Source of the DNA: a bacterium HR24
GTDB lineage: Bacteria; Chloroflexota; Dehalococcoidia; SM23-28-2; HRBIN24
Direction: 5' to 3'
NCBI GenBank assembly: GCA_002898715.1
Contig: BEIA01000001.1
Location: 1,994 to 65,993, forward strand
DNA length: 64,000 bases
In this document: piece after piece, positions 38,068-64,000 of the stretch
Layout of the letters: the number at the start of each line of letters is the position of its first letter
Numbering within the stretch: the first letter of the stretch is position 1
The notes under the pieces: model-generated
Told to the model about the DNA's origin: nothing
The model's database searches: none
The model's input: the letters and a program-made list of their open reading frames with translations, nothing else
Program-made: the position numbers and the translations under genes

Positions 38068-38069
38068 CG

Positions 38070-40306: not shown

Positions 40307-40330
40307 GGCGCCCTCCCCTCGCCGCTCGCT

Positions 40331-41232: not shown

Positions 41233-41235
41233 CCT

Positions 41236-42213: not shown

Positions 42214-42229
42214 TTCCTAGCTGCCCCTG

Positions 42230-45000: not shown

Positions 45001-45185
45001 CCCGTTTCATGTTACACGATTCGACCTCCTACGAAATATGTTACACGTTTGGCTCTGCTGCGGGAGACGCTACATGCAAGACATGACTCTCATCATCGCA
45101 CCATGCTCCCCCTGGTGCCCATTGCCTTCCTCACCAACTGCGCTCGGGAGGCCCCTACCGTTACCGCCCATTACGTCGTGCAGGC

Positions 45186-45465
45186 TACTGACTACTCGGT
45201 TTGACCCTGAAGGCGTAGATGTGACAGAGGAGAAAGAGGGAGATGGTAGGCGCGTGAGCAGATTGTACCACCTGCACTTTGGCTCCTGGCATGCCACCGG
45301 TTCTAGTCTTCTGTAGATGACTCCCAGATAGGACCTAGGGCGTGCCGCTTTATGGCTACCGACTACTCGTTTTGACCCTGAAGGCATAGCCGTGACACGT
45401 AAGCAAATGGGAGATAGCATGAGCAAGGGGAGATTGTACCATTGCCACTTGCCGTGTGCTGCCCT
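45186..45465. repeat. Two ~110-bp imperfect direct repeats upstream of parM (TTTGACCCTGAAGGC-containing; putative parC/promoter)
   Basis: Copy 1 ~45186-45300 and copy 2 ~45356-45465 share GACTACTCG(G/T)TTTGACCCTGAAGGC(G/A)TAG...GTGACA...GGGAGAT...GAGATTGTACCA...CTTG; a third TTTTGACCCTGAAATGACCCTGACATGAC box lies at ~45555. Confidence 0.6.
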
Positions 45466-46606: not shown

Positions 46607-47391
46607 CCTATAACCATGATAGGACGGGTGGATAGGGGCATCCCCGCCGTGTGCCTGCCCTCCCTTCGGGGAGCATCTCATCTCGTCGACCGTGCGCCGT
46701 GGCTGCCGGTGCACCGCCGGGGTGGTGGGGGCAGCCTCAGGGGTGGCGGATACACAGTCGGGTATGCCGGCGCTGCCGTCGGGAGCCTCGCTTCTGGGAG
46801 GGGCCTACCTAAGCGAGGGGCTGCAGCACAAATTGACCCCAAGCCGACCCTGGAGGGGTGGACGAGGGATAGGTGAGAATGTGAGATCATGGTTGGAGCG
46901 GTGATATCCTCGGGCGATGGATGCCTTGGAGTGCCTTAAGGTGACAGTATCCGCCCCTGAAGGTGTTGACAACCCTAGAGGGAGGCGCTAGCGTTAGCGG
47001 TTGCGAAGAGTGGTGTGATAGCCCCCAAGAGGGGGCACCTCGCCTCATGGGCGAGGCTCCGCCACCCCCGGCGGCGGCGTGAAGCCTATCCCCCTACAAG
47101 GGGCTCTGGGCTGAAGTGGCCGGGGAAGCGGACTGGGCCCTGTCGTGATGGGCCTTGGTCCGCACAGGAGGTAGCCTCCAGGAAGCGGGAGGAGGCACCT
47201 CCAGAGTGCCGTCGGCGCTCCGGTTGGGGACCGACGGCTGCGGGCAGTAGGAAAAAGCCCCCTCAGCAGGGGGGCCAACCCCAGGATTGAACGGGTTGGC
47301 GTCCCTGCCGAGGGGGTTATTGTCGTTTGACAGCCCCCTCGTCGGGTAGGGTGGCAGCATCCTGCCCCATCAGGGGGCTGTCGACCCCCAG

Positions 47392-47435
47392 GCCCCAGGA
47401 GGATGGCCCCACCTCCTGGGGCTTTTGTATTTGGG
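47392..47435 (+). terminator. Intrinsic terminator-like hairpin
   Basis: Perfect 10-bp stem CCCCAGGAGG / CCTCCTGGGG with 9-nt loop, followed by CTTTTGTATTTGGGG; a near-identical copy lies at 48832. Confidence 0.5.
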
Positions 47436-47495
47436 GCCCTCCGTCGGAGCTGGCCCGGCCGGCGGTGCAAAACCAAAAGGGCTGGAGGTGAACGT

Positions 47496-48242
47496 ATGCG
47501 ACGGTGGGTGTTGTTCTTCCTCCTGGGGGGCATCCCGGGGCTCCTCCTGGCACTCCTGCTGGGGGCTGCTCCCATGCCTCCCATTTTGCGGCGCCTCCTC
47601 CTGGTGGGGGGCGCCGGCCTGCTGGGGGCCCTCTTCCTGGGGGCCATAGCAGGCAACTTGGGGCTCCGGGCGACGGGGCCCGAGGACCCCACTCCCGCAT
47701 TCGCGGCTGCGGGCGCGGTGGCCGTGGCGGGCGCAGCCGTCACCCTGGCAGTCGTGGCCGCCATGGCCGTCCGGGCTGCCCGCCGGCCCGGACGGCCCGC
47801 TCAGGCCGCCCCGACCACCCCGACCGCCGCGGCCGCCACAGGGAGCGAGGGCACCCAGGGCAGCCCCGCTCCCGCCGTGGCCGTGCACGGCGCCGCCCCG
47901 GAGGAGGCGGCCCGGCTGGAGGCCCTGCTGCGGCCGGTCTCGTCCCTCCTGGGCCGGCCCCTGGTGGTGGTCATCACGCCAGGGAGGCCCCGCGGGTGGC
48001 GGCTGGAGGGGGGCGTCCTCCTCCAGGTCCCCCGCCCCCAGGAGCGGCTCCTGCTAGCCGCCCTGGAGGATGCCCTCCTGGGCAGCGGCAGCCCAGGCGC
48101 CCCTCGACGGGAGCGGCCGTCGCGGCGTGCCCCTGAGGCCGACGTGGCCACAGCATCCCGCCGGCCGCGGCCCGAGGACATCGCCGCCGCTGTGGGAGGC
48201 GCCACACCGGAGGGGAATGGTCCAATGAATGGAGGTGTATAA
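47496..48242 (+). CDS. Membrane protein, paralog A (Ala/Gly-rich TM helices + Pro/Arg-rich C-terminus)
   Basis: MRRWVLFFLLGGIPGLLLALLLGA... ; about 85% identical at the protein level to the product of 59106-59822; start chosen at the ATG preceded by GGAGGTGAACGT. Confidence 0.55.
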   Translation: MRRWVLFFLLGGIPGLLLALLLGAAPMPPILRRLLLVGGAGLLGALFLGAIAGNLGLRATGPEDPTPAFAAAGAVAVAGAAVTLAVVAAMAVRAARRPGRPAQAAPTTPTAAAATGSEGTQGSPAPAVAVHGAAPEEAARLEALLRPVSSLLGRPLVVVITPGRPRGWRLEGGVLLQVPRPQERLLLAALEDALLGSGSPGAPRRERPSRRAPEADVATASRRPRPEDIAAAVGGATPEGNGPMNGGV

Positions 48243-48469
48243 TGATGCTGGCGATGGTCAGTCGAGAGCTGAAGGAAGCGTTTCGAGCTGCAACGCGCCT
48301 GCCTCCGGAGGCACAGAGGGAGCTTGCCGCCTTGATCATGGAAGAGATTGCCGACGAAGAGCGATGGGCTGCCCTGTTTGCCGATCCTCGCAGTGAGCCA
48401 CTCATTGCGCGCCTTGCGGCTGAGGCGGTGGCAGAGGATGATGCAGGCCTCACCGAGCCCTGCGATTGA
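48242..48469 (+). CDS. Putative antitoxin (small acidic protein)
   Basis: 75 aa; ATGA overlap with the downstream RelE/ParE-like gene; acidic C-terminus. Confidence 0.45.
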   Translation: MMLAMVSRELKEAFRAATRLPPEAQRELAALIMEEIADEERWAALFADPRSEPLIARLAAEAVAEDDAGLTEPCD

Positions 48470-48738
48470 GGTCCAGGACAACTCGCTCGTTTAGACAGCA
48501 GTTGGAGGCCCTGCCACCGCACATCCGACGTCAGGCGCGCAAGGCGTATGAACTCTTCCGTGCCAATCCTTCGCACCCCAGCCTCCACTTCAAGCACGTT
48601 ATCGCTAATGTCTACTCAGTCCGCATCACACGAGGATACCGGGCGCTCGGCGTGAAGCGGGGGGATAGCATAGTCTGGTTCTGGATTGGCAGCCACGACG
48701 AGTATGAGCGCATGTTGAGGGCAGAGCCTGGGATCTAG
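48466..48738 (+). CDS. RelE/ParE-superfamily type II toxin
   Basis: 90 aa; core VYSVRITRGYRALGVKRGDSIVWFWIGSHDEYERML matches the RelE/ParE pattern (YR(I/V)..R.GDYRiiY.....i.il.IGHR.e.Y). Confidence 0.55.
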   Translation: MRSRTTRSFRQQLEALPPHIRRQARKAYELFRANPSHPSLHFKHVIANVYSVRITRGYRALGVKRGDSIVWFWIGSHDEYERMLRAEPGI

Positions 48739-48831
48739 CCTAACGACCGGTACTGAGGAGTCTCACCCCCCCAGCGCCCTTCGTGACGGGAGGGCGCCGG
48801 AGAGGGGGTGAGAGATTCATATGTCCCCAAG

Positions 48832-48875
48832 CCCCAGGAGGATGGCCCCACCTCCCGGGGCTTTTGTATTTGGGG
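48832..48875 (+). terminator. Intrinsic terminator-like hairpin (second copy)
   Basis: CCCCAGGAGG-ATGGCCCCA-CCTCCCGGGG followed by CTTTTGTATTTGGGG; ~95 nt after the toxin stop. Confidence 0.45.
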
Positions 48876-50322
48876 CCCCTGTCTGGCGGCGGGGCCGCAG
48901 GCGGCCAGGCGGGGAGTTTGTCGACGGGACTGCGGCAGGTGCCGGCAGGACGCCGTCCCCCAGGAGAGGGTGGGCCTGGGCGAGAAGGCCAGGGCCTATA
49001 GCGCCCCCGCCACCTGCTCCATCCCCATCTCCTGCGGGCGCCCGGGCGGAGTGGGGATGGTGCTGGTCGGGACCGGGCGTCGGGGTGGCCCCGCCCCGTC
49101 CTCTCGGAGAGCGGGAGGGCCGAGAGGAGAAGGACGCGCCTGCACCTCCATGGGAGGGGGCGCGTCCAGGGGGACCCTTCCCCGATGCTCCCCAGGGGAA
49201 GGGTGCTCAGTCCGGGGGAGCACCCGCCGGAGCTGGCCCGGCCGGTGGGGAAAGTTATGGGCCAAAAGGGGGGAAGAAGGGGTGAAGGAGGTGCTGTGTA
49301 GTCAGCGCTCCCCGGGCTGCCTGCCCACCCGGGAGGGGCGCTAGTAACTGAATCCCACCCACCCCTGTGGGTGAGGTGGGGGACGCCCCAGGGTTAGCCC
49401 TCCTGGGGCGATAAAGGCGGAGGGCCCCCAGGAGCCCCAAGGCGGGGGGCGCTCCCCCGCGCGGCGGGTATGGCGTCCGCGGCGGGGCCCCTGGGTTTTC
49501 CCCCCTCGTGTCGGGGCTACCGGCGCACGGAGGGTTGGCCGTCCGGCAGGCGGCCTGGCCCGGGCCGGCTGCGGCGAAGGAGTGTCCACCCCAGGGCGGA
49601 GAGGTCACCCCCTCTCCAGCGCTCTTTCTCAAGGGGAGGGCGCCGGAGAGGGGGTGAGAACTTTTTGAGAACTTTTAAGGCCTGCCTCAGGGATACGGCC
49701 CCGGAAGAGGAAGGGCCGCAGCCGGGGCACGTCCCTGTGGCCCATGTCCGGCCGCGGCCCTACCTCACCAGGAGGTTCGCATGGACAGGCGGACCCATTC
49801 GTGGTCCGTCCCGTGCTCCTGCGACCTTGGCGACGCTTGCCCCGTCGCCAAGGCCATTATAGCACAGAGCACGGCGACGGGCCGCGGGCAGGGCCGCTAA
49901 GCCCCTGCCCGCTCCAACCGAATCCCCCCACCCCGTGGGGCGGTGTTGGCCTGGTAGCCGCACCGGGGGCGATGCTCCAGCCCTGCCGGGGGACGTGGGG
50001 ACTCTCTCCCTACCATCGTGGCCGGATGGTAGGGGTCCGGGAAGGCCCTCCTCCCCGCACCCGCCAGGGAGGGGCCAACTGAATAGGGCTGGAAAACTGA
50101 ATAGCCCCGGCGCTCTCCCCGAGGCACCGGGGCAGGCGGGATAGGGGCAGGGGGTGGGAAGCCGCGGCAGCCGGCACCCACCCCTGTGTGTTGCTGCCCT
50201 CCCCTGTGGAGCGCCCGCCGCCACGGGGGAGTAGAGAGGGCGGGCTTCCCGCCCCTGGCCCCGGGGGCAAAGCCCTCCCCGAATGGGGCACAAATCGAAG
50301 GGGAGGGCAGGAGGAGCATCCC

Positions 50323-51889: not shown

Positions 51890-52159
51890 ATGGTAAGCAT
51901 CACCGACCTCCTCCTACTGGCCAGGCGCCAGCAGGAGGACACCTTCGCTGCGGCCCTGGCGACAAGGCTCGGGCCGCCAGGGGAGGCGTGGGAGGCCGTG
52001 GCCCAGGCGCTGGGGATGCCCTGGGAGCGGTTCCTGTGCCTCCTTACCTGCCGCCTGCCCAGGACGGCAGCGGCGGCCGAGGCCCTGGCCGGGGCCTTCG
52101 GCCTCCCCAAGGAGGCCATCCTGGCCCTGGCCGAGGGGGAGCTGCCGGGAGGGGTGTGA
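51890..52159 (+). CDS. Small hypothetical protein
   Basis: 89 aa; GGGGAGGTGAGGTGAG RBS; TGATG overlap with the primase start. Confidence 0.35.
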   Translation: MVSITDLLLLARRQQEDTFAAALATRLGPPGEAWEAVAQALGMPWERFLCLLTCRLPRTAAAAEALAGAFGLPKEAILALAEGELPGGV

Positions 52160-53220
52160 TGGCCCGACCCGGCAGCGGGTGGAGGGACCTCAAGGAGGAG
52201 GTCCTCCGCCTGTACTCCCCCCTGGACGTGGCCCAGCGCTATGGGCTCGAGCTCCGGCGCATGGGCCGTGTCTGGGCAGCGAGGTGTCCCTTCCATCCGG
52301 ATACACGGCCCTCCTTCTTCGTGTATCCGGATGGCTTCCACTGCTTCGGCTGCGGCTGGCACGGGAACGTGGTGGACTTTGTCGCCGCGGCCGAGCAGGT
52401 GGGGTGGCGGGAGGCCCTCGACCTCCTCGCCGGCGGGCACCTCGGTGCCCCCAAGGCCGTCCGCCCACCGGCCCCGGAGGAGCGGGCGCCGACGGCCGAG
52501 GAGCTGGCCGCGGTGCAGGTCGCCTGGGAGACCTGCCGCCGGCACCTCCGGGACCGCCGGCCCCGCGAGTACCTCACCAGGCGGGGCATCCCCCTGGACG
52601 TGGCCGAGGAGCTCGGCCTCGGCTACTGGGCGCCAGGGGTGGCCACCCGCCTGGAGGCGCTGGGGCTGGTGGAGGCCGCCCTCGCAGTGGGGCTCCTGCG
52701 ACGGCGACGCTCCCCTATGGGGGAGGAGCTGCCGCGCTACTGGGAGCCCTTCCGGGGTCGGGTCATCATACCCGACCTCACGAGGGGCGGCCAGGCCCGG
52801 TGGCTCACCGGCAGAGCCGCCGATGACGTCACCGAGCCCAAATATCTCAACCTCTCCCTCCCCAAGCCCCTGCTGGGGCTGGACACGGTGGAGGGAGAGG
52901 AGGCGGCCCTGGTGGAGGGGCCCCTCGACTGGGTGGCGGCAAGGGCCATGGGCCTTCCCGCCGTCGCCACCCTGGGGGCCCACGTGGGCCGCCTGAAGAT
53001 CACCTCGCTGGCCAGGTTCCGGCGGGTGTTCCTGCTGTTTGACGCCGACGAGGCCGGGCAGCAGGCAGCCAGGGACCTGGCCAAGGCCCTGGGCCGGCGG
53101 GCGGTCATCGTCCCCATCCCCAAGGGGGCCAAGGACGTGGCCGACCTGCTGCTGGCCCAAGGCGGAAAGGGCCGCCTCCTCAGGGCCATGGAGGCGGCCA
53201 GAGAGAAAAAGGGAGGATGA
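52159..53220 (+). CDS. DNA primase (DnaG-type: CHC2 zinc finger + Toprim)
   Basis: Zinc finger CPFHPDTRPSFFVYPDGFHCFGCGWHG; Toprim motifs VIIPD...EGPLDWV...FLLFDADEAGQQAA. Confidence 0.75.
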   Translation: MARPGSGWRDLKEEVLRLYSPLDVAQRYGLELRRMGRVWAARCPFHPDTRPSFFVYPDGFHCFGCGWHGNVVDFVAAAEQVGWREALDLLAGGHLGAPKAVRPPAPEERAPTAEELAAVQVAWETCRRHLRDRRPREYLTRRGIPLDVAEELGLGYWAPGVATRLEALGLVEAALAVGLLRRRRSPMGEELPRYWEPFRGRVIIPDLTRGGQARWLTGRAADDVTEPKYLNLSLPKPLLGLDTVEGEEAALVEGPLDWVAARAMGLPAVATLGAHVGRLKITSLARFRRVFLLFDADEAGQQAARDLAKALGRRAVIVPIPKGAKDVADLLLAQGGKGRLLRAMEAAREKKGG

Positions 53221-53534
53221 GGATGGCGCTTGTCATCTCTCCCCTCCCTGCCCAGGCGCCCGCCTCTCGCCACCGGCGGGCACGGGAGCTCCTGCGGCTC
53301 ATGAGGGCCCATGCAGCTCTCATGGCAGCCGCCTCAAGGGTCTGCCCCGGCGCCCCAATGCCCGTCGGTGGCCCGGAGGCGCGCCGCTTCCTGCTACTCC
53401 TCCAGGAGGCAGGAGCGAGCCCCTATGCCCAGGGGCGCGCCCTGGCCCTGCTGGAGTGGCAGGCGGAGCGGCTCCTGAGGCAAGGAGGGGAGAGAAGTCC
53501 TACCTGCCGGGCAAAGATGCCACCCGGCAGGTAG
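53217..53534 (+). CDS. Hypothetical protein
   Basis: 105 aa; overlaps the primase stop; no motifs. Confidence 0.3.
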   Translation: MRMALVISPLPAQAPASRHRRARELLRLMRAHAALMAAASRVCPGAPMPVGGPEARRFLLLLQEAGASPYAQGRALALLEWQAERLLRQGGERSPTCRAKMPPGR

Positions 53535-53600
53535 AATGAGAGAGGGAGAGGGGCCCAGGGACTGCCCAGGGAGCCCTCCCCTGTGGGAGGGCAGGTGAGC

Positions 53601-53765
53601 CATGCCTCTACAGCCGGAGGCGGCCACCATACTGAGGCCCCTCGTGGAAGGGGGCCTCGCCCTGGGCGTAGGCATGGCCCTCCTCCTCTGGGCCGCCGGC
53701 TCCCGCTACTTCGAGGTCATCTTCATCCTCGCAGCCTTCGGGCTGCTCGTCTACATCTGGCGGTA
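53601..53765 (+). CDS. Small membrane protein (54 aa), absent from the ORF track
   Basis: MPLQPEAATILRPLVEGGLALGVGMALLLWAAGSRYFEVIFILAAFGLLVYIWR; GGGAGGGCAGGTGAG RBS 7 nt upstream. Confidence 0.3.
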
Positions 53766-53901
53766 GCCCGGAGGCCGCAGCAGTCCTCCCCCTGACCCCA
53801 ACCCCAACCCCAACCGAGATACCACCATCCTCGCCCCTAGTCCCGGGGGCATAAGCCTGTCCGAACGGGGCACGAATCGAAGGGCAGGCGGAGGTGAACA
53901 T

Positions 53902-55155
53902 ATGCGCGATGTCATCTTCACCGCCACCCCCTGTGGGGTGGCGGTCCTCCCCACCACCGACACTGCCCCCGCCGGCGCCCGGCGCCTTCTGGCGGGGCGC
54001 GCCTACCTTCTCCCCTCCCGGGAAGGCCTCCCGGCGGAGGGTGAGAGAGAGGTCCTCGACCTCGCCTCCCGCCTCGCCCGCCTGCGGGACGAGGTGGCGG
54101 TGAGGTTCGTGGCCAGGGACGAGCTCGCCCTGGCCACCGCCTGCGCTCTTTCGTCGGGAGAGCACCTCTTCGTCCTCTCCCCTCCCGGGGCGGCGAAGAG
54201 CGCGTTCCTCCGCGCCTTCGCCGAGGGCATTGGGGGCCGCTTCTTCCGGGTGGTCCTCAATCCCGATATCCCCCGGGAGGCCATCTTCGGCGCCATCGAC
54301 CCCTCGGCCCTCGCCGAGGGCAAGTGGCGCCGGCGGTGGGACGGGCTGGCCCGGGCCCACCTGGCGCTCCTGGACGAGGTGTTCAAGGCCTCGCCACAGG
54401 TCTTGAACACCCTCCTGGACGCCCTTGAGGAGAGGCGGGCCGGCCAGGGGGAGGACGAGGTCGTCCTCCCCCTCATCTCCGCCATGGGTGCCTCCAACGA
54501 GGCGCCCGAAGAGCCGGAGCTGAGGGCGGTCTATGACCGCTTCCTCGTCCGGCTCTCGGTGGGGTACGTCCAGGACCCCACCGCTTTCAAGGGGCTGCTC
54601 GTGGCCGATGCCGGCAGCAGCCCCATCACCCCTGTCATGACAGCAGAGGAGCTCATGCTCCTTGCTGCCGCCGTGGAGGCCATGAGCCTCCAGCCGCCCG
54701 CCGAGGTGGTGGAGGCCATGGCCACCATCTGGTCGGAGATGCGCGACCGCGCCGTCTCCGACCGCCGGTGGCGGCGCTCCCTCAAGGTCGCCACCGGCCA
54801 TGCCCTCCTGCGGGGTGCCCAGGCGCCGGAGGTCTATGACCTCGCTGCCCTGCGGTGGACCCTCTGGGTCGACCCGCAGGAGGAGAAGGAGGTCCGGGAC
54901 CTGGTCCTGGGCCTCACCGACCCCCTGGCGGGGAAGGTGCTGGACCTGGAGGCCCTCCTCGCCGATGCCGCCCGCCGTATGGCGGGCCTCGGCCAGATGA
55001 AGGCCGAGGAGAAGGCCCGCCTCCTGCGGGAGCTGCGGGAAATTCGCAGCGAGGCGGAGGGGGTCCTGCCCCAGGCGGGGCGCCATGCCCCGCGCGTCTC
55101 GGCCGTCGCCGAGGAGGCCCAGGCGATGGTCGAGAAGATCATCTCCAGCTTCTAG
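53902..55155 (+). CDS. MoxR-like AAA+ ATPase (AAA_5/AAA_3)
   Basis: Walker A HLFVLSPPGAAKSAFLRAF, Walker B ALLDEVFKASPQVLNTLLDALEER, sensor region; conserved leader GGGGCACGAATCGAAGGGCAGGCGGAGGTGAACAT directly upstream. Confidence 0.75.
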   Translation: MRDVIFTATPCGVAVLPTTDTAPAGARRLLAGRAYLLPSREGLPAEGEREVLDLASRLARLRDEVAVRFVARDELALATACALSSGEHLFVLSPPGAAKSAFLRAFAEGIGGRFFRVVLNPDIPREAIFGAIDPSALAEGKWRRRWDGLARAHLALLDEVFKASPQVLNTLLDALEERRAGQGEDEVVLPLISAMGASNEAPEEPELRAVYDRFLVRLSVGYVQDPTAFKGLLVADAGSSPITPVMTAEELMLLAAAVEAMSLQPPAEVVEAMATIWSEMRDRAVSDRRWRRSLKVATGHALLRGAQAPEVYDLAALRWTLWVDPQEEKEVRDLVLGLTDPLAGKVLDLEALLADAARRMAGLGQMKAEEKARLLRELREIRSEAEGVLPQAGRHAPRVSAVAEEAQAMVEKIISSF

Positions 55156-55167
55156 GGGGAGGGGGCC

Positions 55168-55902
55168 ATGCAGAACCTTCTCCGCCACACCTGCCCCTCC
55201 TGCCAGGGGCGATTCTGGCTGGAGCGGCTCCCGCAGGGGACCATCCTGTGTCCCTACTGCGGGGCGACTGTCTCCGGCTCCGGCCGCCTCGGGCGGAGGA
55301 GCAGCGCGGTCCCGGCGTGCACGGTCCGCAACGGGACCGCCGTCCCCGGCATCCGCACCGAGGATGGCCTCATCATCCTCGGTGAGGAGGGCCGGGGCAG
55401 GCGACTCACCCGGGTGCCCCTGCCGTCGGGGGCATCCCTAGACCGGGAGGGGACCGTGCAGGCCCTCCCGGTGTCCCACCCCGCCGCGGTGGCAGTGATC
55501 CTCATCCGGGACCACTCCGGCTACCGCGGCGGGTGGGAGCTCCTCACCCTCCCAAGGGAGGACTGCCCCCTGCGGGGCAAGCTGGAGCTCCTGTGGGAGG
55601 AGACCTGCCCCGTCTGCGAGTGGTGGGGCAGGCATGGGCCCTACCCCGTCCGCCAGCTCCGGGCGCAGGACCTCGGCCACCTCATCGCCGAGGGCTACTG
55701 TGCCCAGGGAGCTGCCGGGCGAATGGGCGGCGGGCCCGAGTACCTCATCGCCGCTCCCCCGGGGGAGTTCTGCATTTACCGCTGGGGGCGGCTCTACGGC
55801 GCACCCCGCTTCGTGGGGGTGCGCATCTACCCCGACGGCCGGGTGGAGACGTGGGACGTCATGGAAGCCCTCTCCTCCACCCGTGCCGCCGAGTCCTGGT
55901 AA
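55168..55902 (+). CDS. Zinc-ribbon protein (candidate vWA-MoxR-associated middle component)
   Basis: N-terminal CPSCQGRF...CPYCG zinc ribbon, further CPVCEW; sits between the MoxR and VWA genes. Confidence 0.45.
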   Translation: MQNLLRHTCPSCQGRFWLERLPQGTILCPYCGATVSGSGRLGRRSSAVPACTVRNGTAVPGIRTEDGLIILGEEGRGRRLTRVPLPSGASLDREGTVQALPVSHPAAVAVILIRDHSGYRGGWELLTLPREDCPLRGKLELLWEETCPVCEWWGRHGPYPVRQLRAQDLGHLIAEGYCAQGAAGRMGGGPEYLIAAPPGEFCIYRWGRLYGAPRFVGVRIYPDGRVETWDVMEALSSTRAAESW

Positions 55903-55918
55903 GGAGGGGGGTGAGGCC

Positions 55919-57493
55919 ATGAACGGCCCCATCCCCTACCTCCCTCCCGCCGCCGAGCGGGTCCTGGAGCAGGCCCGCAGGCTCTTCCTCCTGCGGGACC
56001 TGCGCTCGGTGGCGGCGGGGGCCGACCGCCTCTCCTTCCGCCAATGGGCGGAGGGGGTGCGCGGCTACCCCCAGGCCGCCGAGGCCAACGAGGACCTCGG
56101 CGGCATCCTCGGCGGGGAGCCGGTGAGGGACGCCTTCTTCCTCGTCACCTCGCCGGCGCCGCAGCTGGTGCCGCAGCCCCCACAGGGCACCGAGCTGCTG
56201 CACCGCATCCTGGGGGAGGCCATCACCACCCCGGGCTTCGGTCGCCTGCGGGAGACGGCGGGCGATGACCCGGTGGTGGCTGCGTACGGCGCCTCCCACT
56301 GGGCGCGGGAGCTCGTCTCGCAGCTCCCGGAGTCCATCAAGGAGGCCGCCCGCGAGGCAGCCGCTGCCCAGGGGGAGGTGCAGGAGGCCCGGGAAGCCCT
56401 GCAGCAGCTCGCTGCCCTCAAGGCCTCCCTCGAGGAGCAGGGCCGGGAGGTGCCCGGCGAGCTGGTGGAGCAGCTCGCCCAGGCCGAGGCAGCCGTCCAG
56501 GCAGCCACCGCTAGGGCCCAGGCGGCCTCCTCGACCACCCTCGCCCTCCTGGAGGAGAGGGCAGCAGAGGTGCGGGCCGCCGCCTCCCGAGCCGCCGAGG
56601 CGGCCTCCACCCAGGGCCGCCAGTTCGAGGCCTCGGTGAGGGGCTTCGACCTGGCGGCAGGGGGCGAGGGGGCCGTCTCGCCCGAGGCGGCGAGGGCCTG
56701 GATGGAGGTCCTCGCCCGCCATCCCCGCCTGGAGGCCCTGGCTCGCGAGCTGGGCTGGGCCCGCCGCCTGGTGGGCTCCCTCTGGCGCCAGTCGCCACAC
56801 GCCCGCACGGAGCTGGTGGGCTACCGCTCCGGCTACCTGCGGGCCGAGGAGCTGGCGCCCTGGGAACTGGCCCTCATGGTGGGGCCGGCGCCTGCCCGGC
56901 TCGACTTCCTGCGCCGGGCTGCCGAGGGTGACATCCGCCACCGGCAGCTGCAGGGCAGGGAGAAGATGGGACGGGGGCCGCTGGTGGTGGTCAGGGACGA
57001 GTCGGGCTCCATGCAAGGGGGTCCGCATGCCCTGGCCGTCGCCATCGAGTGGGCCCTCCTGGAGGTCTGCCGCCGGGAGGGCAGGCCCCTCGTCTCCATC
57101 TGTTTCTCCGGGCCGGGGCAGGTCCGGGCCTGGAGGGCGCCCACAGGCGGGCGGCCCGACCACGAAGGGCTGCTCCGCCACCTCTCCCACTTCTACGGGG
57201 GAGGGACGGAGCCCTACCAGGCCCTCTCCCTCGCCCTCCGGGAGGTGGAGGGGAGCGCCGAGATGAGGCGGGCCGACATCCTCCTCATCTCGGACGCCAT
57301 CTTCCCACCTCCGCCGGAGGAGGTGCGACGGCTGCTGGAGGCCGCCCGCCGGCGCCGCCCCCTGCACCTGGCCGCCGTCCTGGTGGGAACGGTGCCGGGA
57401 CCCCTGGAGGGGCTGGCACACCCCATCGTCAGGGTGTCAGACCTCCTCCAGGAGAGGGAGCGGCTGCGGGAGGCCCTCTCCGCCGTCCTGTAA
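55919..57493 (+). CDS. VWA-domain protein (MoxR partner)
   Basis: C-terminal VWA/MIDAS-like block LVVVRDESGSMQGG ... ILLISDAIF; long coiled-coil/Ala-rich N-terminal half. Confidence 0.65.
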   Translation: MNGPIPYLPPAAERVLEQARRLFLLRDLRSVAAGADRLSFRQWAEGVRGYPQAAEANEDLGGILGGEPVRDAFFLVTSPAPQLVPQPPQGTELLHRILGEAITTPGFGRLRETAGDDPVVAAYGASHWARELVSQLPESIKEAAREAAAAQGEVQEAREALQQLAALKASLEEQGREVPGELVEQLAQAEAAVQAATARAQAASSTTLALLEERAAEVRAAASRAAEAASTQGRQFEASVRGFDLAAGGEGAVSPEAARAWMEVLARHPRLEALARELGWARRLVGSLWRQSPHARTELVGYRSGYLRAEELAPWELALMVGPAPARLDFLRRAAEGDIRHRQLQGREKMGRGPLVVVRDESGSMQGGPHALAVAIEWALLEVCRREGRPLVSICFSGPGQVRAWRAPTGGRPDHEGLLRHLSHFYGGGTEPYQALSLALREVEGSAEMRRADILLISDAIFPPPPEEVRRLLEAARRRRPLHLAAVLVGTVPGPLEGLAHPIVRVSDLLQERERLREALSAVL

Positions 57494-57614
57494 CCGCCAC
57501 CCCTGATCCCTGTGCGTCCATGACGCCGCGAGGCGCACAGAAGGGGACAGGGGTCCCCACCGGCGTCGGCCCGGCCGGCGGGGTGAAGCTATGGGCCAGG
57601 AGGTGATATGTGAT

Positions 57615-59072
57615 ATGATACTGAACCTCCTACCCCCGCTTCACCGCCCTGCCTACATGGTGGGCGGGGCGGTGCGAGACATGCTCCTGGGGAGACCCCT
57701 CCACGACATCGATATCGTCGTGGAGGGGGACCCCCATGAGGCCGCCCGCGAGATCGGTGCTGCCCTCGCGGGCGCCCTGGTCCCCCTCAAGGGCCTGGTG
57801 CGGGTGGTGGCCACCCATGTGCAGGTGGACATCACCCGCCTTTCGGGGCCTATCGCCGAGGACCTGGCCCGCCGCGACTTCACCATCAACGCCATGGCCC
57901 TCCCGCTGGGATCCGGGAGGGAGAAGGGCCTGCCCCCGGTCCTGGACCCCACGGGTGGCAGGGACGATCTCCGCCGGGGCGTCGTGCGACTCGTCTCGCC
58001 CGATGCCCTGGCAGCCGACCCGGTGCGGCTCCTGCGGGGGCCCAGGCTCGCCCTCGAGCTGGGCTTCCGCGTAGAAGGGCACACCGCCCGGGCCATCAGG
58101 GCGCATGCCCAGCTCCTCGGCAGGGCAGCCCCTGAGCGGCTGGCGGAGGAGCTGCGCCGGCTGCTCCACCTGCCGGACGGCGGGCGGGGGATGGGCCTCC
58201 TCCACCACCTTGGCCTCCTCGTACAGCTCTTCCCCGAGCTGCAGGAGGCCGAGGGGGTGGCCCAGCCCTACCCCCACCGGCAGGACGTCCTCGCCCACCT
58301 GCTGGACGCTGCCAGGTGGGCCGACGTCATCCTCGGCCGCTCGGCGACGGCCGAGGAGGAGCGCGTCCGCCGGGCCACCGGCCACCTCATGACCCCACAG
58401 GTGCACGAGCGCCTGGGGGAGGAGGTGGCCCACGGCTGGCAGCAGGCGGCCCTCCTGCGGTTGGGGGCACTCCTGCACGATATAGGCAAGCCCCGCAGCC
58501 GTAGGAGAACCCAGGACGGCCGTGTCCACTTCTATGGACACGACCGCCTGGGCGCCGAGATGGCAGCAGCCATGGCGGCGCGCCTCCGGCTCCCCGCCAG
58601 GGCCGGCACCTTTCTCATGGCCCTGGTGAGGGAGCACATGCGGCCGGTGGGGCTCGCCGCCGCCCCCGGCCTGCCCTCCCGCCGTGCCCTCTACCGCCTC
58701 CACCGCGACGCCGGCGGCACCGCCACCGCCCTGGCCCTCCTGTTCGTGGCCGACACCCTGGCCACGAGCGGGCCCGGGGACCGGGAGCGGCTGGGGCGGG
58801 CGCTAGAGGTGGCCCGCCACCTCGTGCTCTACGGCCACGAGCAGGACGCGGTGCCCAGGCTCCTGTCCGGCCACGACGTCATGACCGCCCTGGGCATCGG
58901 GCCTGGGCCCCTCGTGGGCCGGGTGCTGCGGGCCGTGCAGGAGGCGGCAGCCGCGGGGGAGGTATGCAGCAAGGAGGAGGCGCTGGAGCTGGCCAGGCGC
59001 ATAGCCCAAGCTCCCGCGCCCTCCCAAGAGCCCATCCCTGCCCCTGGCCCCGGGGGTGAAGCCTGCCCGTAA
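57615..59072 (+). CDS. CCA-adding tRNA nucleotidyltransferase / poly(A) polymerase-family enzyme with HD domain
   Basis: Pol-beta NTase head GGAVRDMLLGRPLHDIDIVVEG, RRDFTINAMAL, HD motif ALLHDIGKP...HFYGHD; start at MILNLL with AGGAGGTG RBS (ORF extends to 57591). Confidence 0.75.
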   Translation: MILNLLPPLHRPAYMVGGAVRDMLLGRPLHDIDIVVEGDPHEAAREIGAALAGALVPLKGLVRVVATHVQVDITRLSGPIAEDLARRDFTINAMALPLGSGREKGLPPVLDPTGGRDDLRRGVVRLVSPDALAADPVRLLRGPRLALELGFRVEGHTARAIRAHAQLLGRAAPERLAEELRRLLHLPDGGRGMGLLHHLGLLVQLFPELQEAEGVAQPYPHRQDVLAHLLDAARWADVILGRSATAEEERVRRATGHLMTPQVHERLGEEVAHGWQQAALLRLGALLHDIGKPRSRRRTQDGRVHFYGHDRLGAEMAAAMAARLRLPARAGTFLMALVREHMRPVGLAAAPGLPSRRALYRLHRDAGGTATALALLFVADTLATSGPGDRERLGRALEVARHLVLYGHEQDAVPRLLSGHDVMTALGIGPGPLVGRVLRAVQEAAAAGEVCSKEEALELARRIAQAPAPSQEPIPAPGPGGEACP

Positions 59073-59105
59073 GGGGCACAAATCGAAGGGCAGGCGGAGG
59101 TGAAC

Positions 59106-59822
59106 ATGCGTAGGTGGGTCTTCTTCTTCCTGCTGGGGGGCATCCCGGGGCTCCTCCTGGCACTCCTGCTGGGAGCTGTCCCGGCGCCCCCCACCCTGCG
59201 GCGCCTCCTCCTGGTGGGGGGCGCCGGCCTGCTGGGCTCCCTCTTCCTGGGGGCCATAGCAGGCAACCTGGGGCTCAGGGCCACGGGGCCCGAGGACCCC
59301 ACGGCGGCCTTCGCCGCCGCCGGCGCGGTGGCCGTGGCCGGCGCAGTCGTCACCCTGGCAGTCATCACCGCCATGGCCGTCAGGGCTGCCCGCCGGCCCG
59401 GGCAGCCTGAGCAGGCCACCCCGGCTGCCCCGGTCGCCAGGGGGAGCGAGGGCGCCCAGGGCGGCCCTGCTCCTGTGGTGGCCGTGCACGGTGCCGCCCC
59501 GGAGCAGGGGGCCCGGCTGGAGGCCCTGCTCCGGCCGGTCTCGTCCCTCCTGGGCCAGCCCCTGGTGGTGGTCATCACCCCAGGGAGACCCCGGGGGTGG
59601 CACCTGGAGAAGGGCATCCTCCTCCAGGTGCCACGTCCCCAGGAGCGGCTCGTGCTTGCCGCCCTGGAGGACGCCCTCCTAGGCGGGGGCAGTGAGCGCC
59701 CTCGCCGCGAGAGGTCGCCTCGCCAGCTCCCCGAGGGAGGCGGGCCGACTGTGTCGCGCCGCCCTCGGCCCGAGGACATCGCCGCGGCCGTGGGTGGCGC
59801 CACGACGGAGGGGGAGGCATAG
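59106..59822 (+). CDS. Membrane protein, paralog B
   Basis: MRRWVFFFLLGGIPGLLLALLLGAVPAPPTLRRLLLVGGAGLLG...; near-identical to the product of 47496-48242; leader GGGGCACAAATCGAAGGGCAGGCGGAGGTGAAC upstream. Confidence 0.55.
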   Translation: MRRWVFFFLLGGIPGLLLALLLGAVPAPPTLRRLLLVGGAGLLGSLFLGAIAGNLGLRATGPEDPTAAFAAAGAVAVAGAVVTLAVITAMAVRAARRPGQPEQATPAAPVARGSEGAQGGPAPVVAVHGAAPEQGARLEALLRPVSSLLGQPLVVVITPGRPRGWHLEKGILLQVPRPQERLVLAALEDALLGGGSERPRRERSPRQLPEGGGPTVSRRPRPEDIAAAVGGATTEGEA

Positions 59823-59826
59823 CAGC

Positions 59827-61065
59827 ATGCACCCACCCCACTACCCCTCCGGCCAGGACCTGGAGCGGCTGGCCGAGAGGGCCATCGTCTTCCTCAACCG
59901 GTGGACGACCCTCGTCCCCTGCTTCTGGGGACCGTCCTCGGAGGGGAAGACCTACTTCGTGCGGGCCATGGCCGCACGCCTGGGCGCCTGCTTCCTGCAC
60001 GTCATCCTCAAGAACATGAAGCCCGATGACGTGCTGGGCGCCCAGGTCCTCACCCCATCAGGTGAGCTCAGGGTCGAGCTCTCCTGGTGGGTCAAGGAGG
60101 CCATGGGCGCCGCCCAAGGGGGGCGTAAGGTCGTCGTCTTCCTGGACGAGCTGGACAAGGCCGACGACGACCTCATCGCCCCCATCCTCACCTTCCTCCG
60201 GGACCGCACCGTCTACGGCGTGGCCCTGGAGGACGAGGAGGCCATCAGGGAAGGGAAGGAGGAGCGGCGCATCTACCTCGTCGCCGCCTGTAACCCGGGC
60301 GCTTTCGACGAGGCGATGCGCTGCCGGCTCGCCTTCATCTGGTGGCCCACCGACGCTGCCGGCTACTACAGCGTGGCCGGCAGCTCGCCCCTGGCGAGGG
60401 CAGCCGTCGAGAAGGCCGCCCCGCTGCTCGCCGAACGGCGCCGGCAGGCCGAGCGGCAGCCACCCCCGATGCCGGAGTTCACCAAGGCCACGGTAGACGC
60501 CCTCCGGCGGGGGGAGCAAGAGCTGCTACGCATGGCCCGCGACGAGCGCTGCTTCATCCTCTCCCTCCTCATGCCGCCCTCCCTCGCCGAGGCGGTGGAG
60601 GAGGAGATGGCCCACCGGCAGGAGCAGCCGCCGCTGGACCTGCTGGTGGAGCAACCCCAGGAGCTGGCGAGGCTCCTTGCCCGCCTGGAGCTGCCCGAGT
60701 TCGTGGCCACCGCCGCCTCGGCCCTCGGGCATGCCCTGAAGGTGGGCAAGAGGGAGGCACTCCCGGCCATCACCGCCGCCATCTACCGCGGCGCCCTCGC
60801 CCCCGTCGCCGCGGGCGGCAAGGATGCCGGCGCGCGGCGCGAGGCGCTGGAGCGTCTATCGGCCTGGATGGCCGAGCGGCCCGACAAGGAGCCGCTGGGG
60901 GAGCTGGTGGCCGACGCCCTCTCCCGGCTCGGAGGCGAGGCCTTCTTTGAAGCCCTCGCCAGGGACGGGCTGCTCCGCCTCCAGGAGGACGGCAGCCTCG
61001 GCGGCGAGCTGGTGGAGCTCCTGCAGGCCCTGCAGGAGCCCGTCCAGGGGGCGCTCATCCCATGA
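59827..61065 (+). CDS. MoxR/CobS-like AAA+ ATPase (AAA_5)
   Basis: Walker A GPSSEGKTYFVRAMAARLG, Walker B VVVFLDELDKADDDLIAPILTFL; followed by a VWA/metallopeptidase partner. Confidence 0.7.
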   Translation: MHPPHYPSGQDLERLAERAIVFLNRWTTLVPCFWGPSSEGKTYFVRAMAARLGACFLHVILKNMKPDDVLGAQVLTPSGELRVELSWWVKEAMGAAQGGRKVVVFLDELDKADDDLIAPILTFLRDRTVYGVALEDEEAIREGKEERRIYLVAACNPGAFDEAMRCRLAFIWWPTDAAGYYSVAGSSPLARAAVEKAAPLLAERRRQAERQPPPMPEFTKATVDALRRGEQELLRMARDERCFILSLLMPPSLAEAVEEEMAHRQEQPPLDLLVEQPQELARLLARLELPEFVATAASALGHALKVGKREALPAITAAIYRGALAPVAAGGKDAGARREALERLSAWMAERPDKEPLGELVADALSRLGGEAFFEALARDGLLRLQEDGSLGGELVELLQALQEPVQGALIP

Positions 61066-62393
61066 GCCACCCCCTCCTGGGCAAGGTCTTGGCTGCCCTG
61101 CCGCCGGCCCTGGCGGGCCTCTTCGAGACGGGCCTCCTCGCCATCGAGATACGCGACGGCCCCGAGGCCCGCCGGCCCTACGCCATGACCGTCTACCGGC
61201 GGGGCAGCTACACGTTCGCCATCGTCCTCGACGCCCACGCGGTGGCAGTGGCGTCGAGGACGGCCCTGCAGGCCATCGTCCGGCACGAGGTGGGCCACAT
61301 CGTCCTGGGCCACTTCGGGCCGGAGCACGAGGCCTGCCACCTCCCCTGCAACACCCTCGCCGAGGAGGCGGAGGTCAACGGCTTCCTCTCCCGGGAGGAG
61401 CGGGAGGCGGTGGCCGACGCCTGCACGGTCCTCGCCCTCAGGAGCCTCGCGAGGCGCCTCGGGCCGGCCATCGCCATGCTCCTTGCGGGCGCCGGCTTCA
61501 GGGCGAAGGTCGTGGACCCGGACGAGGTGCGGGCCATGGCCGGCCTCTCGCCTGACCTGCCGCCCCGTTGGAGGTGGCTCCATCCCCTCCTGCACCCTAT
61601 GCCGTCCGATCGGGAGCTGCCGGGTCTGGACGCCCACGGGGCGGGCGGCCCAGGCGCAGGGGTCGGGGCAGGAGAAGGGGACCACCTGGGCGAGGGCTAC
61701 CCCTGCGGAGGCGTCCAGGTGGAGGAGGGCGCCACGGAGGAGGCCGCCGGCGTGGCGGCAGCCCTTGCCGCCTCGCCCAGGGCGCAGGCAGCGCTGGAGG
61801 GACAGGGCCTGCGCGGATGGGGCAGCGGGGCGGGCAGCGCGACCATGGAGTGGCGCCCTCCCCTCCTGCCGCGCTGGGCACAGGAGGTGCTGGAGTGGGC
61901 ACGCAAGCTCGCCCACCGCACCTGGGCCCTCCGCCGCATCCGCCACCGGCCCCGCATCGACTTCCTGCGAGCCACCGGCCTCTACCGCCCCGACCGGGGC
62001 TACGACCGGGTGCGGGCCGGAGGGGAGGTGGTCTTCGTGGTGGACGCCTCGAGATCCATGGTCCAGGACGTCCACTATGCCCACCCGGCCATAAGCTTCC
62101 TCCTCCACCAGGGCATCACCGTCAGGTTCATCTGCGGCGATGTGCAGGTGGAGGTGGACACGCTCTTGCGGCCGGGAGATGAGATCCCCGCCCCCAAGGG
62201 GTGCGGGGGCACCGATATCTGCCCGCTCATGGAGCGGGCAGCCTCCTACCGGCCACACGGGATATGCGTCTACACCGATGCCGCCATCCCGCGCTGGCCA
62301 CCCCAGCCCGAGGGGGCAGAGGTCCTCTGGGTCGTCCCGGAGGGCATCACGCCCCCTTACGGGCAGGCCGTCCACTGGCGGCCGGAGAGCTAG
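61062..62393 (+). CDS. Putative metallopeptidase (HExxH, DUF2201-like) fused to a VWA-like domain (MoxR partner)
   Basis: HEVGHIVLGH zincin-like motif in the N-terminal half; C-terminal VWA-like block VVFVVDASRSM ... GGTDICPLM; ATGA overlap with the upstream ATPase. Confidence 0.6.
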   Translation: MSHPLLGKVLAALPPALAGLFETGLLAIEIRDGPEARRPYAMTVYRRGSYTFAIVLDAHAVAVASRTALQAIVRHEVGHIVLGHFGPEHEACHLPCNTLAEEAEVNGFLSREEREAVADACTVLALRSLARRLGPAIAMLLAGAGFRAKVVDPDEVRAMAGLSPDLPPRWRWLHPLLHPMPSDRELPGLDAHGAGGPGAGVGAGEGDHLGEGYPCGGVQVEEGATEEAAGVAAALAASPRAQAALEGQGLRGWGSGAGSATMEWRPPLLPRWAQEVLEWARKLAHRTWALRRIRHRPRIDFLRATGLYRPDRGYDRVRAGGEVVFVVDASRSMVQDVHYAHPAISFLLHQGITVRFICGDVQVEVDTLLRPGDEIPAPKGCGGTDICPLMERAASYRPHGICVYTDAAIPRWPPQPEGAEVLWVVPEGITPPYGQAVHWRPES

Positions 62394-62414
62394 GGAACTA
62401 CAGGAGGTGAGAGG

Positions 62415-62954
62415 ATGAGGTCAGAACTCCCCCTCCCCCAACAGGTGTGGGAGGCCCTCTATGGCCTCGCGGCCGAGGCCCGGCGGCAGGTGGAGAAGGA
62501 CGGGGGGATGAACCCCATCGTCGTGGCCATCGGCCGCGAGCAGGCCATCGTGATGGAGGCCAGTCACTGGGACGAGGCCTCCAAGCACGAGACCATGCGC
62601 ACCGCCGGGGCCATAGCGGCCCGCATCTCGCCCATGGCCGTGGCCCTGGTAGCCGACATTTACTACCTCGCCCTCACCCCCTCGGAGGGGGCGGCCGACT
62701 TCCCTCCCTCCCTCGCCGACGACCCGCGGTCGGTGGAGGCGGTGTGCCTGGCCGTGGTCGACCGGCGGGGGAACAGCTTCGTGCGCCTCTGGCCCTACCG
62801 GCGAGAGGTGCACGGGCTGGATGTGAGGACCGTCTGGCTGGACGAGGGAGAGGTCGGCCACCCGCCCCAGGACGCAGGGAGCATCGTCTCCCCCGTCGTG
62901 GCCAGCTTCTGGCAGGGGGTGGACGAGGCAACGCCCCCGCCTCATCAGGGATGA
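62415..62954 (+). CDS. Hypothetical protein
   Basis: 179 aa; GGAGGTGAGAGG RBS; no motifs. Confidence 0.35.
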   Translation: MRSELPLPQQVWEALYGLAAEARRQVEKDGGMNPIVVAIGREQAIVMEASHWDEASKHETMRTAGAIAARISPMAVALVADIYYLALTPSEGAADFPPSLADDPRSVEAVCLAVVDRRGNSFVRLWPYRREVHGLDVRTVWLDEGEVGHPPQDAGSIVSPVVASFWQGVDEATPPPHQG

Positions 62955-63247
62955 TGGCGGGACCTCCTGCCCCCTCCCACCTCGTCACCGAGGCCCTCGC
63001 CCTAGGGGCACGCCCCCGCCTCCAGATCTCCCTCAGGGAGACCTCAGACCCGGAGGGGGACCTGGCGCGGGCGCGTCCCCTCTTCCGCCTCCTCCAGTCC
63101 CACCCCGGCAAGGACGCCGTGGTGGTGACGGTCCATACGGCAGACGGCAGGAGGCGTCAGGTCCTCTTCCGCTGCTGCGTGGACAAAGATCTACTCTCAG
63201 CCATCGCGGCGGTCATGCGCCGCGACAAACAGGGGGTGAGAGCTTAG
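62951..63247 (+). CDS. Hypothetical protein
   Basis: 98 aa from MMAGPP, overlapping the previous stop by 4 nt. Confidence 0.3.
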   Translation: MMAGPPAPSHLVTEALALGARPRLQISLRETSDPEGDLARARPLFRLLQSHPGKDAVVVTVHTADGRRRQVLFRCCVDKDLLSAIAAVMRRDKQGVRA

Positions 63248-63443
63248 CTGCCCCGAGCGCTAGATAGCAGGCAAGACATCCCAGTGCAGGCGCCAGACCA
63301 GTGCATGACAAGCTAGTACAGCAAACGCCACCCCAAGGCACCCCGTGCCCCGATGACACGGCAGCCACATACCAGTTGAGGCCACGACCGTTCAGGCTAG
63401 CTCACCATACGCTACAAGCTTGCAACCACAGGAGGTGAGACGC

Positions 63444-64000
63444 ATGCGCAAGGATGCCTTGCAGGACCTCAAAGACTTCCTCTTCCGCAAGATCGCCGAC
63501 CTGGGCTGGGCGCCCCAGGAGCAACTGGCCCGCCTTGCCCAGAAAGAGATGGGCGCCGATGCCCTCTCGGTCCACCAGGCCCTCCGCTTCCTGGTCCGCC
63601 AGGACTACGTCACCCTCAAGGAGGGGCCCGATGGCCAGAAGGGCTACGAGGTGCTGCCACCCTCCACCTCTCAGAAGGGCCGCCAGGGGACCAGGTATGG
63701 CCAGTGGTCGCCCATCACGGTGGTCACGGCTACCTTTATCACGCACTCCCTGGCGCCCATGACCAGGCCGGGGGACGACACCCACTTCTTCTTCCCGCGC
63801 ATCCCCGACGGTCGCATCATCATCCCCCGCGCCAACATTATCGCCATGCTCAAGCGGGCATGGCTCCTCCTCGACAAGGAGGACGGCGTGGCCCAGGCAG
63901 CCCTCAAGCGCTGGGACGTCTACCCCGTCCTCTTCCCCCAGGACGCGGCCGCCGAGACGGTGGTCAGGCGCGTGGTGCGGCCCGACGGCCGCACCACCGA
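63444..64000 (+). CDS. Hypothetical protein, 3'-partial (runs off the window); not in the ORF track
   Basis: ATG at 63444 preceded by AGGAGGTGAGACGC; open frame with no stop to 64000 (MRKDALQDLKDFLFRKIADLGWAPQEQLARLAQ...). Confidence 0.4.
   Translation, partial: MRKDALQDLKDFLFRKIADLGWAPQEQLARLAQKEMGADALSVHQALRFLVRQDYVTLKEGPDGQKGYEVLPPSTSQKGRQGTRYGQWSPITVVTATFITHSLAPMTRPGDDTHFFFPRIPDGRIIIPRANIIAMLKRAWLLLDKEDGVAQAALKRWDVYPVLFPQDAAAETVVRRVVRPDGRTT

Follow-up and report, generated by a model that had tools for sequence, protein, structure and literature searches.

A MoxR-class ATPase and its zincin-VWA partner in a Chloroflexota conjugative element: a putative regulated peptidase of the replication and establishment region

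Several two-gene systems are known in which a MoxR-class AAA+ ATPase is paired with an adaptor that carries a VWA domain, including NorQ/NorD, RavA/ViaA, CbbQ/CbbO, CobS/CobT and BchI/BchD. Their adaptors contain no peptidase, and they act on a known client, either inserting a metal or reactivating an enzyme. Other subtypes of MoxR/VWA pair occur in the backbones of pCAR1, R478, Rts1, SXT and R391 (PMC2642839), and N4-like phages carry gp24 and gp25, middle genes that belong to the 14 core genes of that group (PMC4193335). Here we describe such a pair in a 64,000-nucleotide (nt) stretch of contig BEIA01000001.1 from bacterium HR24, a member of the Chloroflexota. This whole stretch is called the window, and we read it as an integrative conjugative element (ICE). 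The pair, hereafter pair 2, consists of a MoxR-class ATPase gene followed by a gene for a protein in which a zincin precedes a VWA domain. It differs from NorQ/NorD-type pairs in having an adaptor with a fused, conserved zincin and in lacking a client gene. We conclude that pair 2 is a MoxR-AAA+/VWA two-component machine with a conserved small zincin on its adaptor, and we give a probability of roughly 60% to the reading that it serves as an ATP-driven, regulated peptidase of the replication/establishment module, targeted by its metal-ion-dependent adhesion site (MIDAS).

The window has a GC content of 68–75%, and its genes were picked by selecting reading frames on GC content at third codon positions (GC3), which was unambiguous in the window. 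Both pair-2 open reading frames (ORFs) lie on the plus strand, where an earlier reading made from the sequence alone (the sequence-only reading) had placed them, and their GC3 of ~0.91 is usual for coding frames here. The features of the two genes are as follows, with lengths in amino acids (aa).

59827-61065, plus strand: MoxR-class AAA+ ATPase (AAA_5), 412 aa, identified by Pfam, PHROG and motifs
59929-59952, plus strand: Walker A, GPSSEGKT, read in the ATPase
60130-60156, plus strand: Walker B, VVVFLDELD, read in the ATPase
60280-60300, plus strand: sensor 1, VAACNPG, read in the ATPase
61062-62393, plus strand: zincin-VWA fusion protein (the partner), 443 aa, identified by Pfam, profile-profile comparison and models
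Partner residues 1-180: minigluzincin-like peptidase domain, the N-terminal part of the protein
61284-61313, plus strand: zinc-site motif HEVGHIVLGH (H75, E76, H79, H84)
Between the peptidase and VWA domains: poorly ordered linker and helical middle region
Partner residues 323-437: DUF2201 (VWA-like) domain, Pfam 3.3e-12, 47 bits against a cut-off of 26.4
62043-62057, plus strand: MIDAS DxSxS motif, DASRS (D328, S330, S332)
62199-62216, plus strand: MIDAS T384, in GCGGTD
62271-62282, plus strand: MIDAS D406, in YTDA

The ATPase matches Pfam AAA_5 (1.3e-8; 35.3 bits against a cut-off of 22) as well as Pfam AAA. Its AAA core covers approximately residues 29-170, and the C-terminal half (~240 aa) is also conserved. 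Within the core, G35, G40, K41, D107, E108, N156 and R167 (the conserved arginine) do not vary among orthologues or in the gp24-like protein of the phage. The best PHROG is phrog_1297 (2.8e-11, covering residues 29-156 only), compared with 4e-4 for the CobS-type phrog_249; the nearest PDB sequence is NorQ, a weak match (E 0.067), and a search of NCBIfam gave no match. The protein had been described as a MoxR/CobS-like ATPase, of which the MoxR part stands and the CobS part does not; likewise, the CobS/CobT-like label for the pair is dropped, as there are no matches to CobS, CobT or CobN families. The stop codon of the ATPase gene and the start codon of the partner gene overlap as ATGA (61062-65), and the two genes are translationally coupled.

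A fragment of a cobalamin operon was considered as the origin of the pair and rejected. CobS, CobT and CobN are missing, the neighbours are primase, CCA-adding enzyme and type IV secretion system (T4SS) genes, and no CobN or other cobalamin-pathway gene was found in related loci or among the scanned window genes (those from 9 kb onwards, apart from several small ORFs).

In the partner, the zincin motif occupies residues 75-84, N-terminal to the VWA block as the sequence-only reading had it, and the model of the N-domain has a zincin fold with a predicted local distance difference test score (pLDDT) of 93.5. Its nearest folds are the minigluzincins and M48 peptidases: the structure of the catalytic domain matches, and HExxH lies on the active-site helix. 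A search of the PDB with a sequence profile likewise finds MJ1213 (E 8.6e-4). Identity to the minigluzincins (selecase MJ1213, proabylysin, projannalysin) and to M48/M56 proteins (BepA, Ste24/ZMPSTE24, HtpX, BlaR1) is only 14–18%. Moreover, minigluzincins are stand-alone archaeal proteins of ~110 residues, whereas the window domain has extra helices, a VWA fusion and a paired ATPase. H84 and E102 are candidates for the third zinc ligand.

By our own estimate, a lone HExxH could arise by chance in 443 residues at the few-percent level. H75, E76, H79 and H84 are kept in ten close homologues (55–93% identity), together with EEAEVN and every MIDAS residue, and across 11 close homologues the zinc-site motif does not vary. 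In a 50-sequence alignment spanning 17–87% identity, H75, E76, H79, H84 and N106 are at least 90% conserved, as is T384, while D328, S330, S332 and D406 are invariant, i.e., the MIDAS is complete. A profile of the close homologues, searched against 1.84 billion cluster representatives, gave 1222 proteins at E<=1e-3 but only 30 at E<=1e-30; the partner's subfamily is thus a small divergent branch within a large family.

That large family is defined by proteins with Pfam DUF2201_N (PF13203) followed by DUF2201 (PF09967), with which the partner has HExxHxxxxH, Ax[DE]xxVN and the MIDAS residues in common; its AEEAEVN (residues 100-106) is the counterpart of AxDxxVN in canonical members. The proposal that the partner has this architecture holds for PF09967 and fails for a direct match to PF13203, which does not hit the partner even at E<=10, its N-domain being too divergent for that model. 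Across the 50 family members, PF13203 matches 15 and PF09967 matches 49. However, aligning the subfamily (33 sequences) with canonical DUF2201_N+DUF2201 proteins (25 sequences) using hhalign gave a probability of 100% and an E of 2.5e-50. This alignment begins before HExxH and extends to the last residue, with HExxHxxLxH...AxDxxxN aligned, and because it spans the protein from HExxH to the C-terminus, we take the partner to have a divergent form of the DUF2201_N+DUF2201 architecture, the DUF2201_N assignment being one of profile-profile comparison alone. The subfamily also has Cys/His motifs of its own, namely C92, LHxxLH (H174, H178) and C215-G-G, which are invariant within it and neither invariant nor near-invariant in the canonical set. 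We suspect that C92, H174, H178 and C215 form an extra metal site. A search of the literature on DUF2201 and COG3864 found nothing useful.

The best PHROG for the partner is phrog_1314. The N4 gp24/gp25-like pair falls in the same two PHROGs as pair 2, and it too has its ATPase upstream, a partner with an HExxH zincin and a MIDAS-bearing VWA domain, and a DNA-replication neighbourhood. In the Pseudomonas phage phiPA1-3, for example, the gp24-like MoxR ATPase and the gp25-like metallopeptidase/vWFA protein (ORF35/ORF37) match phrog_1297 at 1e-128 and phrog_1314 at 1e-138, respectively. There are differences: against the N4 gp25-like protein, tblastn covers only the last 80 residues at ~30% identity and hhalign only the VWA half, while the window ATPase, at 412 aa, has a longer C-terminal region than gp24-like proteins, and its host is a conjugative element, not a virus. 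The relationship is therefore very distant, and these comparisons suggest that phages and plasmids share with the window a gp24/gp25-type pair as in N4, of which pair 2 is a divergent relative at the level of orthologues. The claim that such pairs recur in phages is borne out by the PHROGs, by the gp24/gp25-like proteins and by a search with a canonical member, which returned at least 169 phage records and at least 107 plasmids (29 typed as conjugative). Foldseek against viral models also gave full-length matches in many phages, and the pair of the Rhodothermus plasmid pRHOM17201 matches both phrog_1297 and phrog_1314.

As a side observation, phrog_1314 is labelled 'HNH endonuclease', and many phage records repeat this label for the zincin-VWA gene. 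We found no support for an HNH nuclease in the sequences or models of the zincin-VWA family, and the label looks like a propagated mis-annotation.

Pair 2 is not the only MoxR/VWA pair in the window, and its gene neighbourhood is given here. "Pair 1" denotes the upstream pair.

53902-57493, plus strand: pair 1, a three-gene set headed by a leader
53902-55155, plus strand: bpMoxR/RavA-like ATPase (bpMoxR 7e-38; AAA_5, AAA_lid_8)
55168-55902, plus strand: zinc-ribbon protein of pair 1, 244 aa
55922-57493, plus strand: ViaA-like VWA protein (VWA_2) with a long coiled-coil N-terminal region
57591-59072, plus strand: nucleotidyltransferase of the CCA-adding/poly(A) polymerase family that carries an HD domain (phrog_2244, 6e-42)
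59041-59107, plus strand: 67-nt leader at the head of the pair-2 operon (repeat family D3)
50253-50319: copy of the leader, before a coiled-coil gene at 50320
53835-53901: copy of the leader, heading pair 1 (ATPase at 53902)
59106-59822, plus strand: first gene of the pair-2 operon, 238 aa, with three N-terminal hydrophobic segments
62415-62954, plus strand: downstream gene, 179 aa, conserved after the pair in some relatives only

The two pairs span 8.5 kb and, as the sequence-only reading had proposed, are distinct: their ATPases are 26% identical over the core only, and their VWA proteins are barely alignable. That reading had also taken the pairs to be cargo, and this we reverse. The closest relative of the partner (87% identical) is on a 180-kb contig of a Chloroflexota metagenome-assembled genome, L001 in our numbering of loci. 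There, the primase gene is followed by pair 1, the membrane-protein gene, pair 2 and a 180-aa gene, which is the order of the window minus the CCA-adding gene, and the leader is found at both equivalent positions (about 4262-4362 and 7930-8030). In L005/L006, at 58% identity, the order is pair 1, two unknown genes, a single-stranded DNA-binding protein (SSB) gene and pair 2. Because the order is kept in relatives at 58–87% identity and the same leader heads both pairs, the pairs are backbone genes of this element family rather than cargo. In our reading, pair 2 belongs to the backbone of this conjugative element, within its region for replication and establishment (primase, SSB).

Relatives were also compared by their genomic contexts. 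In 10 of the 11 other distinct contexts (L001, L002, L003, L005, L008, L009, L010, L012, L013 and L014), an ATPase-sized gene lies upstream of the peptidase-VWA gene, either directly or one small ORF away. Four upstream genes (L008, L013, L014 and L019) are without an ATPase annotation or precomputed Pfam match, although that of L008 matches phrog_1297. In the Rhodococcus plasmid L020, a 209-aa hypothetical gene is directly upstream, and the only annotated AAA ATPase is ~1.4 kb downstream. Replication genes occur within a few kb of the pair in 9 of the 11. For example, an SSB gene is directly upstream of the pair in L002, L003 and L005, while L012 has UvrD helicase, primase, SSB and SNF2-like helicase genes upstream. 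Phage-like contigs (L010, L013 and L014) have uracil-DNA glycosylase (UDG), PolA and PrimPol genes beside distant members of the subfamily, with a terminase gene in one of them. The pair of the N4-like phage L009 precedes helicase and DNA polymerase genes, and that of a Burkholderia conjugative plasmid (L019) lies between a DNA polymerase III beta gene and T4SS genes. Since the pair is found in a conjugative element, plasmids and phages, usually beside replication genes, we favour a role in replication or establishment over one in virion assembly.

How such a machine might work can be sketched by analogy with NorQ/NorD, whose mechanism has been described (PMC13036017). The ATPase would form a hexameric motor onto which the partner would dock via its VWA domain and linker, and ATP hydrolysis would remodel the linker. 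The MIDAS metal site would grip an acidic residue of a target protein, which the fused zinc endopeptidase would probably then cleave, so that the outcome would be ATP-gated cleavage or cleavage combined with remodelling. The motor may also unmask a latent peptidase. Minigluzincin crystal structures show self-inhibited forms, which makes ATP-gated unmasking plausible.

Several points weigh against a replication/establishment peptidase. The association with replication genes was counted in a dozen contexts and does not come from a statistical census, and in the Burkholderia conjugative plasmid the pair abuts T4SS genes. The C-terminal half of the ATPase and the middle region of the partner resemble nothing known. 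The tie between the ATPase and the phage gp24 family is one of AAA cores: the hhalign match to the gp24-like protein (probability 85%, E 6e-6) covers residues 27-183. Modelled at full length, the partner reaches only a mediocre pLDDT of 67, which does not fix how its peptidase and VWA domains are arranged. Finally, for group 2.2 jumbo phages, where the same pairing of MoxR with a metallopeptidase-vWA protein occurs, Iyer et al. proposed a role in virion assembly (PMC7824862).

The last of these points leads to the alternative of an assembly chaperone with a maturation protease, acting on a large DNA-translocating structure that would be the virion in phages and the T4SS or Tad-like pilus here, with the VWA domain binding subunits and the peptidase processing them. 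Besides the jumbo-phage proposal, a MoxR-vWA system has been reported as needed for tail assembly in Acidianus two-tailed virus (PMC7824862), the pair of Burkholderia gladioli plasmid 1 is directly upstream of VirB11-like, VirB3 and VirB4 genes, and the first gene of the pair-2 operon encodes a probable membrane protein. We nevertheless think this role unlikely. The conjugative element retains the pair though it has no virion, and its presence in an ICE, which makes none, argues that the published virion-assembly proposal cannot be the general role. As for the other structures, 16–40 kb separate the pair from the T4SS and pilus genes of the window, and the T4SS block (29055-43462) is encoded on the other strand. 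Most contexts adjoin genes for SSB, primase, helicase, UDG or DNA polymerase rather than structural genes, and the N4 genes are middle-class, not late (PMC4193335). A second alternative is an anti-defence or host-takeover protease, made on entry: its MIDAS would bind a host defence or nucleoid protein, which would then be destroyed. The likeness here is to ArdC of plasmid R388, a zincin from a conjugative element that acts at establishment (PMC7213743). However, ArdC joins a single-stranded DNA (ssDNA)-binding domain to its zincin, and the partner has neither an ssDNA-binding domain of this type nor the order of ArdC-N followed by a C-terminal zincin. Genes of this sort are usually variable, whereas the pair is core in N4-like phages and syntenic in the element family, and PADLOC, whose models cover defence systems and not anti-defence, gave no significant match. 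We regard an anti-defence or host-takeover function as unlikely.

Two further explanations start from better-characterised MoxR/VWA systems, and we consider both very improbable. MoxR/VWA pairs of known function are mostly chaperones of the metal-insertion or chelatase type (PMC13036017, PMC9976466), so pair 2 could mature a metalloenzyme in the manner of CobS/CobT, NorQ/NorD or CbbQ/CbbO, with HExxH handling the metal; the weak ATPase matches to NorQ and phrog_249 point the same way. Yet the Cob families are unmatched, the only NCBIfam signal from the partner is a trace of TIGR02442 (11.2 bits against a cut-off of 779), and related loci have no conserved candidate for a client metalloenzyme nearby. 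The fold and motifs of the N-domain are those of peptidases, and cofactor insertion fits poorly with a pair that is core in lytic phages. The other explanation is a defence or abortive-infection conflict system, whose effector peptidase, directed at phages or rival elements, would respond at a threshold determined by the MoxR-vWA couple. Kaur et al. described conflict systems in which the vWA protein of such a couple is fused to an effector (PMC7159879), and the pair-1 ATPase matches their bpMoxR model; it is the only ATPase here that does. For pair 2, PADLOC gave nothing significant: the partner had no match, and the ATPase had a single weak one (PDC-S01, E 0.019). A third component (VMAP, iSTAND, FtsH or beta-propeller) is absent from pair 2 and its conserved neighbours. 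The same pair is core in lytic N4-like and jumbo phages, which argues against an anti-phage role.

The replication/establishment reading can be taken further, to a replication-stage, ATP-gated protease common to phages, plasmids and ICEs, although this extension is speculative and we hold it to be improbable as a whole. The MIDAS would recognise a protein on element DNA, bound or covalently attached, on incoming or replicating molecules, and cleavage would remove it. Targets could include a relaxase or terminal protein, host SSB and nucleoid proteins, with C92, H174, H178 and C215 as an extra regulatory metal site. SprT/Wss1 with Cdc48 offers a conceptual parallel, being a zincin that works with an AAA+ motor; if the extension is true, removal of DNA-bound proteins would be a bacterial mobile-element analogue of SPRTN/Wss1-Cdc48 logic. 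Few genes are common to N4-like phages, jumbo phages, megaplasmids and conjugative elements; the AAA_5 and zincin-VWA pair is among them and is core in N4-like phages, yet none of its members has been assigned a function. The locus described here contributes a divergent branch from Chloroflexota conjugative elements, and the main value of the locus lies in the argument from context across element types.

The leader that heads both MoxR/VWA operons consists of a palindrome, then a hairpin and lastly the ribosome-binding site GGAGGTG, and it runs up to the ATG. Its core, GGGGCACAAATCGAAGGG, occurs 3 times against 0 expected, and in the copy at 50253 a compensatory stem, GCCCTCCCC/GGGGAGGGC, replaces GCCTGCCC/GGGCAGGC. 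One predicted fold is common to all three copies, with the Shine-Dalgarno sequence paired. Compared with shuffled controls, the fold energies of this GC-rich leader reach no significance (z -0.6 to -1.8). At the gathering threshold, Rfam found a tRNA-Arg only and nothing for the leader, and scans of 57400-64000 for sigma-70 promoters and intrinsic terminators found none. The leader may be a translational or transcriptional control element of both operons, and its presence at the head of each suggests that pair 1 and pair 2 are probably co-regulated through it.

Of the other genes in the pair-2 operon, the first encodes a probable membrane protein, judging by its hydrophobic segments (at about residues 4-25, 33-57 and 66-92). 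Its 238-aa product has no Pfam, PHROG, NCBIfam or PADLOC match, and a 245-aa gene has the same position in L001. A paralogue of this gene lies 11.6 kb upstream, at about 47496-48242, with DNA 76–88% identical. The 179-aa gene after the pair, which also has no family match (Pfam, PHROG, NCBIfam, PADLOC), is 84% identical in L001 and 54% in L003. In L002 and L005, the gene at its position is 26–31% identical over a fragmentary alignment, so homology is not convincing. Its conservation behind the pair is limited to some relatives, and we therefore count it as a loose member of the operon.

Pair 1 resembles RavA/ViaA in NCBIfam (RavA 8e-35, ViaA 1.9e-12), with both matches far under the equivalog cut-offs. 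It is kept together with a small zinc-ribbon gene in L005/L006, and it is without the beta-propeller that is the defining component of bpMoxR ternary systems. The CCA-adding gene sits between pairs 1 and 2, and its 3' end overlaps the leader. It is absent from the equivalent position in L001 and L005/L006, which makes it a variable cargo insert.

The remaining features of the window are those of a conjugative element.

5709-5784, plus strand: tRNA-Arg(CCT), from Rfam
9076-10296, minus strand: tyrosine integrase
21189-25467: Tad-like pilus set of a response-regulator/ParA-like ATPase (which we take to be TadZ-like), T2SSE and T2SSF
29055-30797, minus strand: Replic_Relax relaxase
31253-34276, minus strand: coupling protein
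35505-37370, minus strand: VirB4-like ATPase
39839-43462, minus strand: PrgI, M23/SLT hydrolase and TrbL
51988-53220, plus strand: DnaG-type primase
Also in the window: UvrD-like and DEAD_2-type helicases

The tRNA-Arg(CCT) and the integrase, 3.3 kb apart, probably mark the integration site and left end of the element, which continues beyond the right end of the window. Among the scanned ORFs, none is a capsid or terminase gene. A megablast of 53000-64000 against phages and plasmids gave zero matches, and a scan of genome contigs from 185,579 species representatives found no relative.

Between the T4SS block and a DUF192 gene, where GC falls to its minimum for the window (0.61), are two 97-nt direct repeats (45183-45279 and 45354-45450; 75% identical, 171 nt apart), which could be an origin, an origin of transfer (oriT) or a small RNA region. 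A 54-nt repeat (47386-47439 and 48825-48878; 96% identical) flanks the paralogue of the 238-aa gene together with a small cassette of two overlapping genes on the plus strand (48242-48469 and 48466-48738). This cassette resembles a toxin-antitoxin pair. At the equivalent place in L001 (1178-1805) there is a nucleotidyltransferase/HepT pair instead, and the slot seems to exchange addiction modules.

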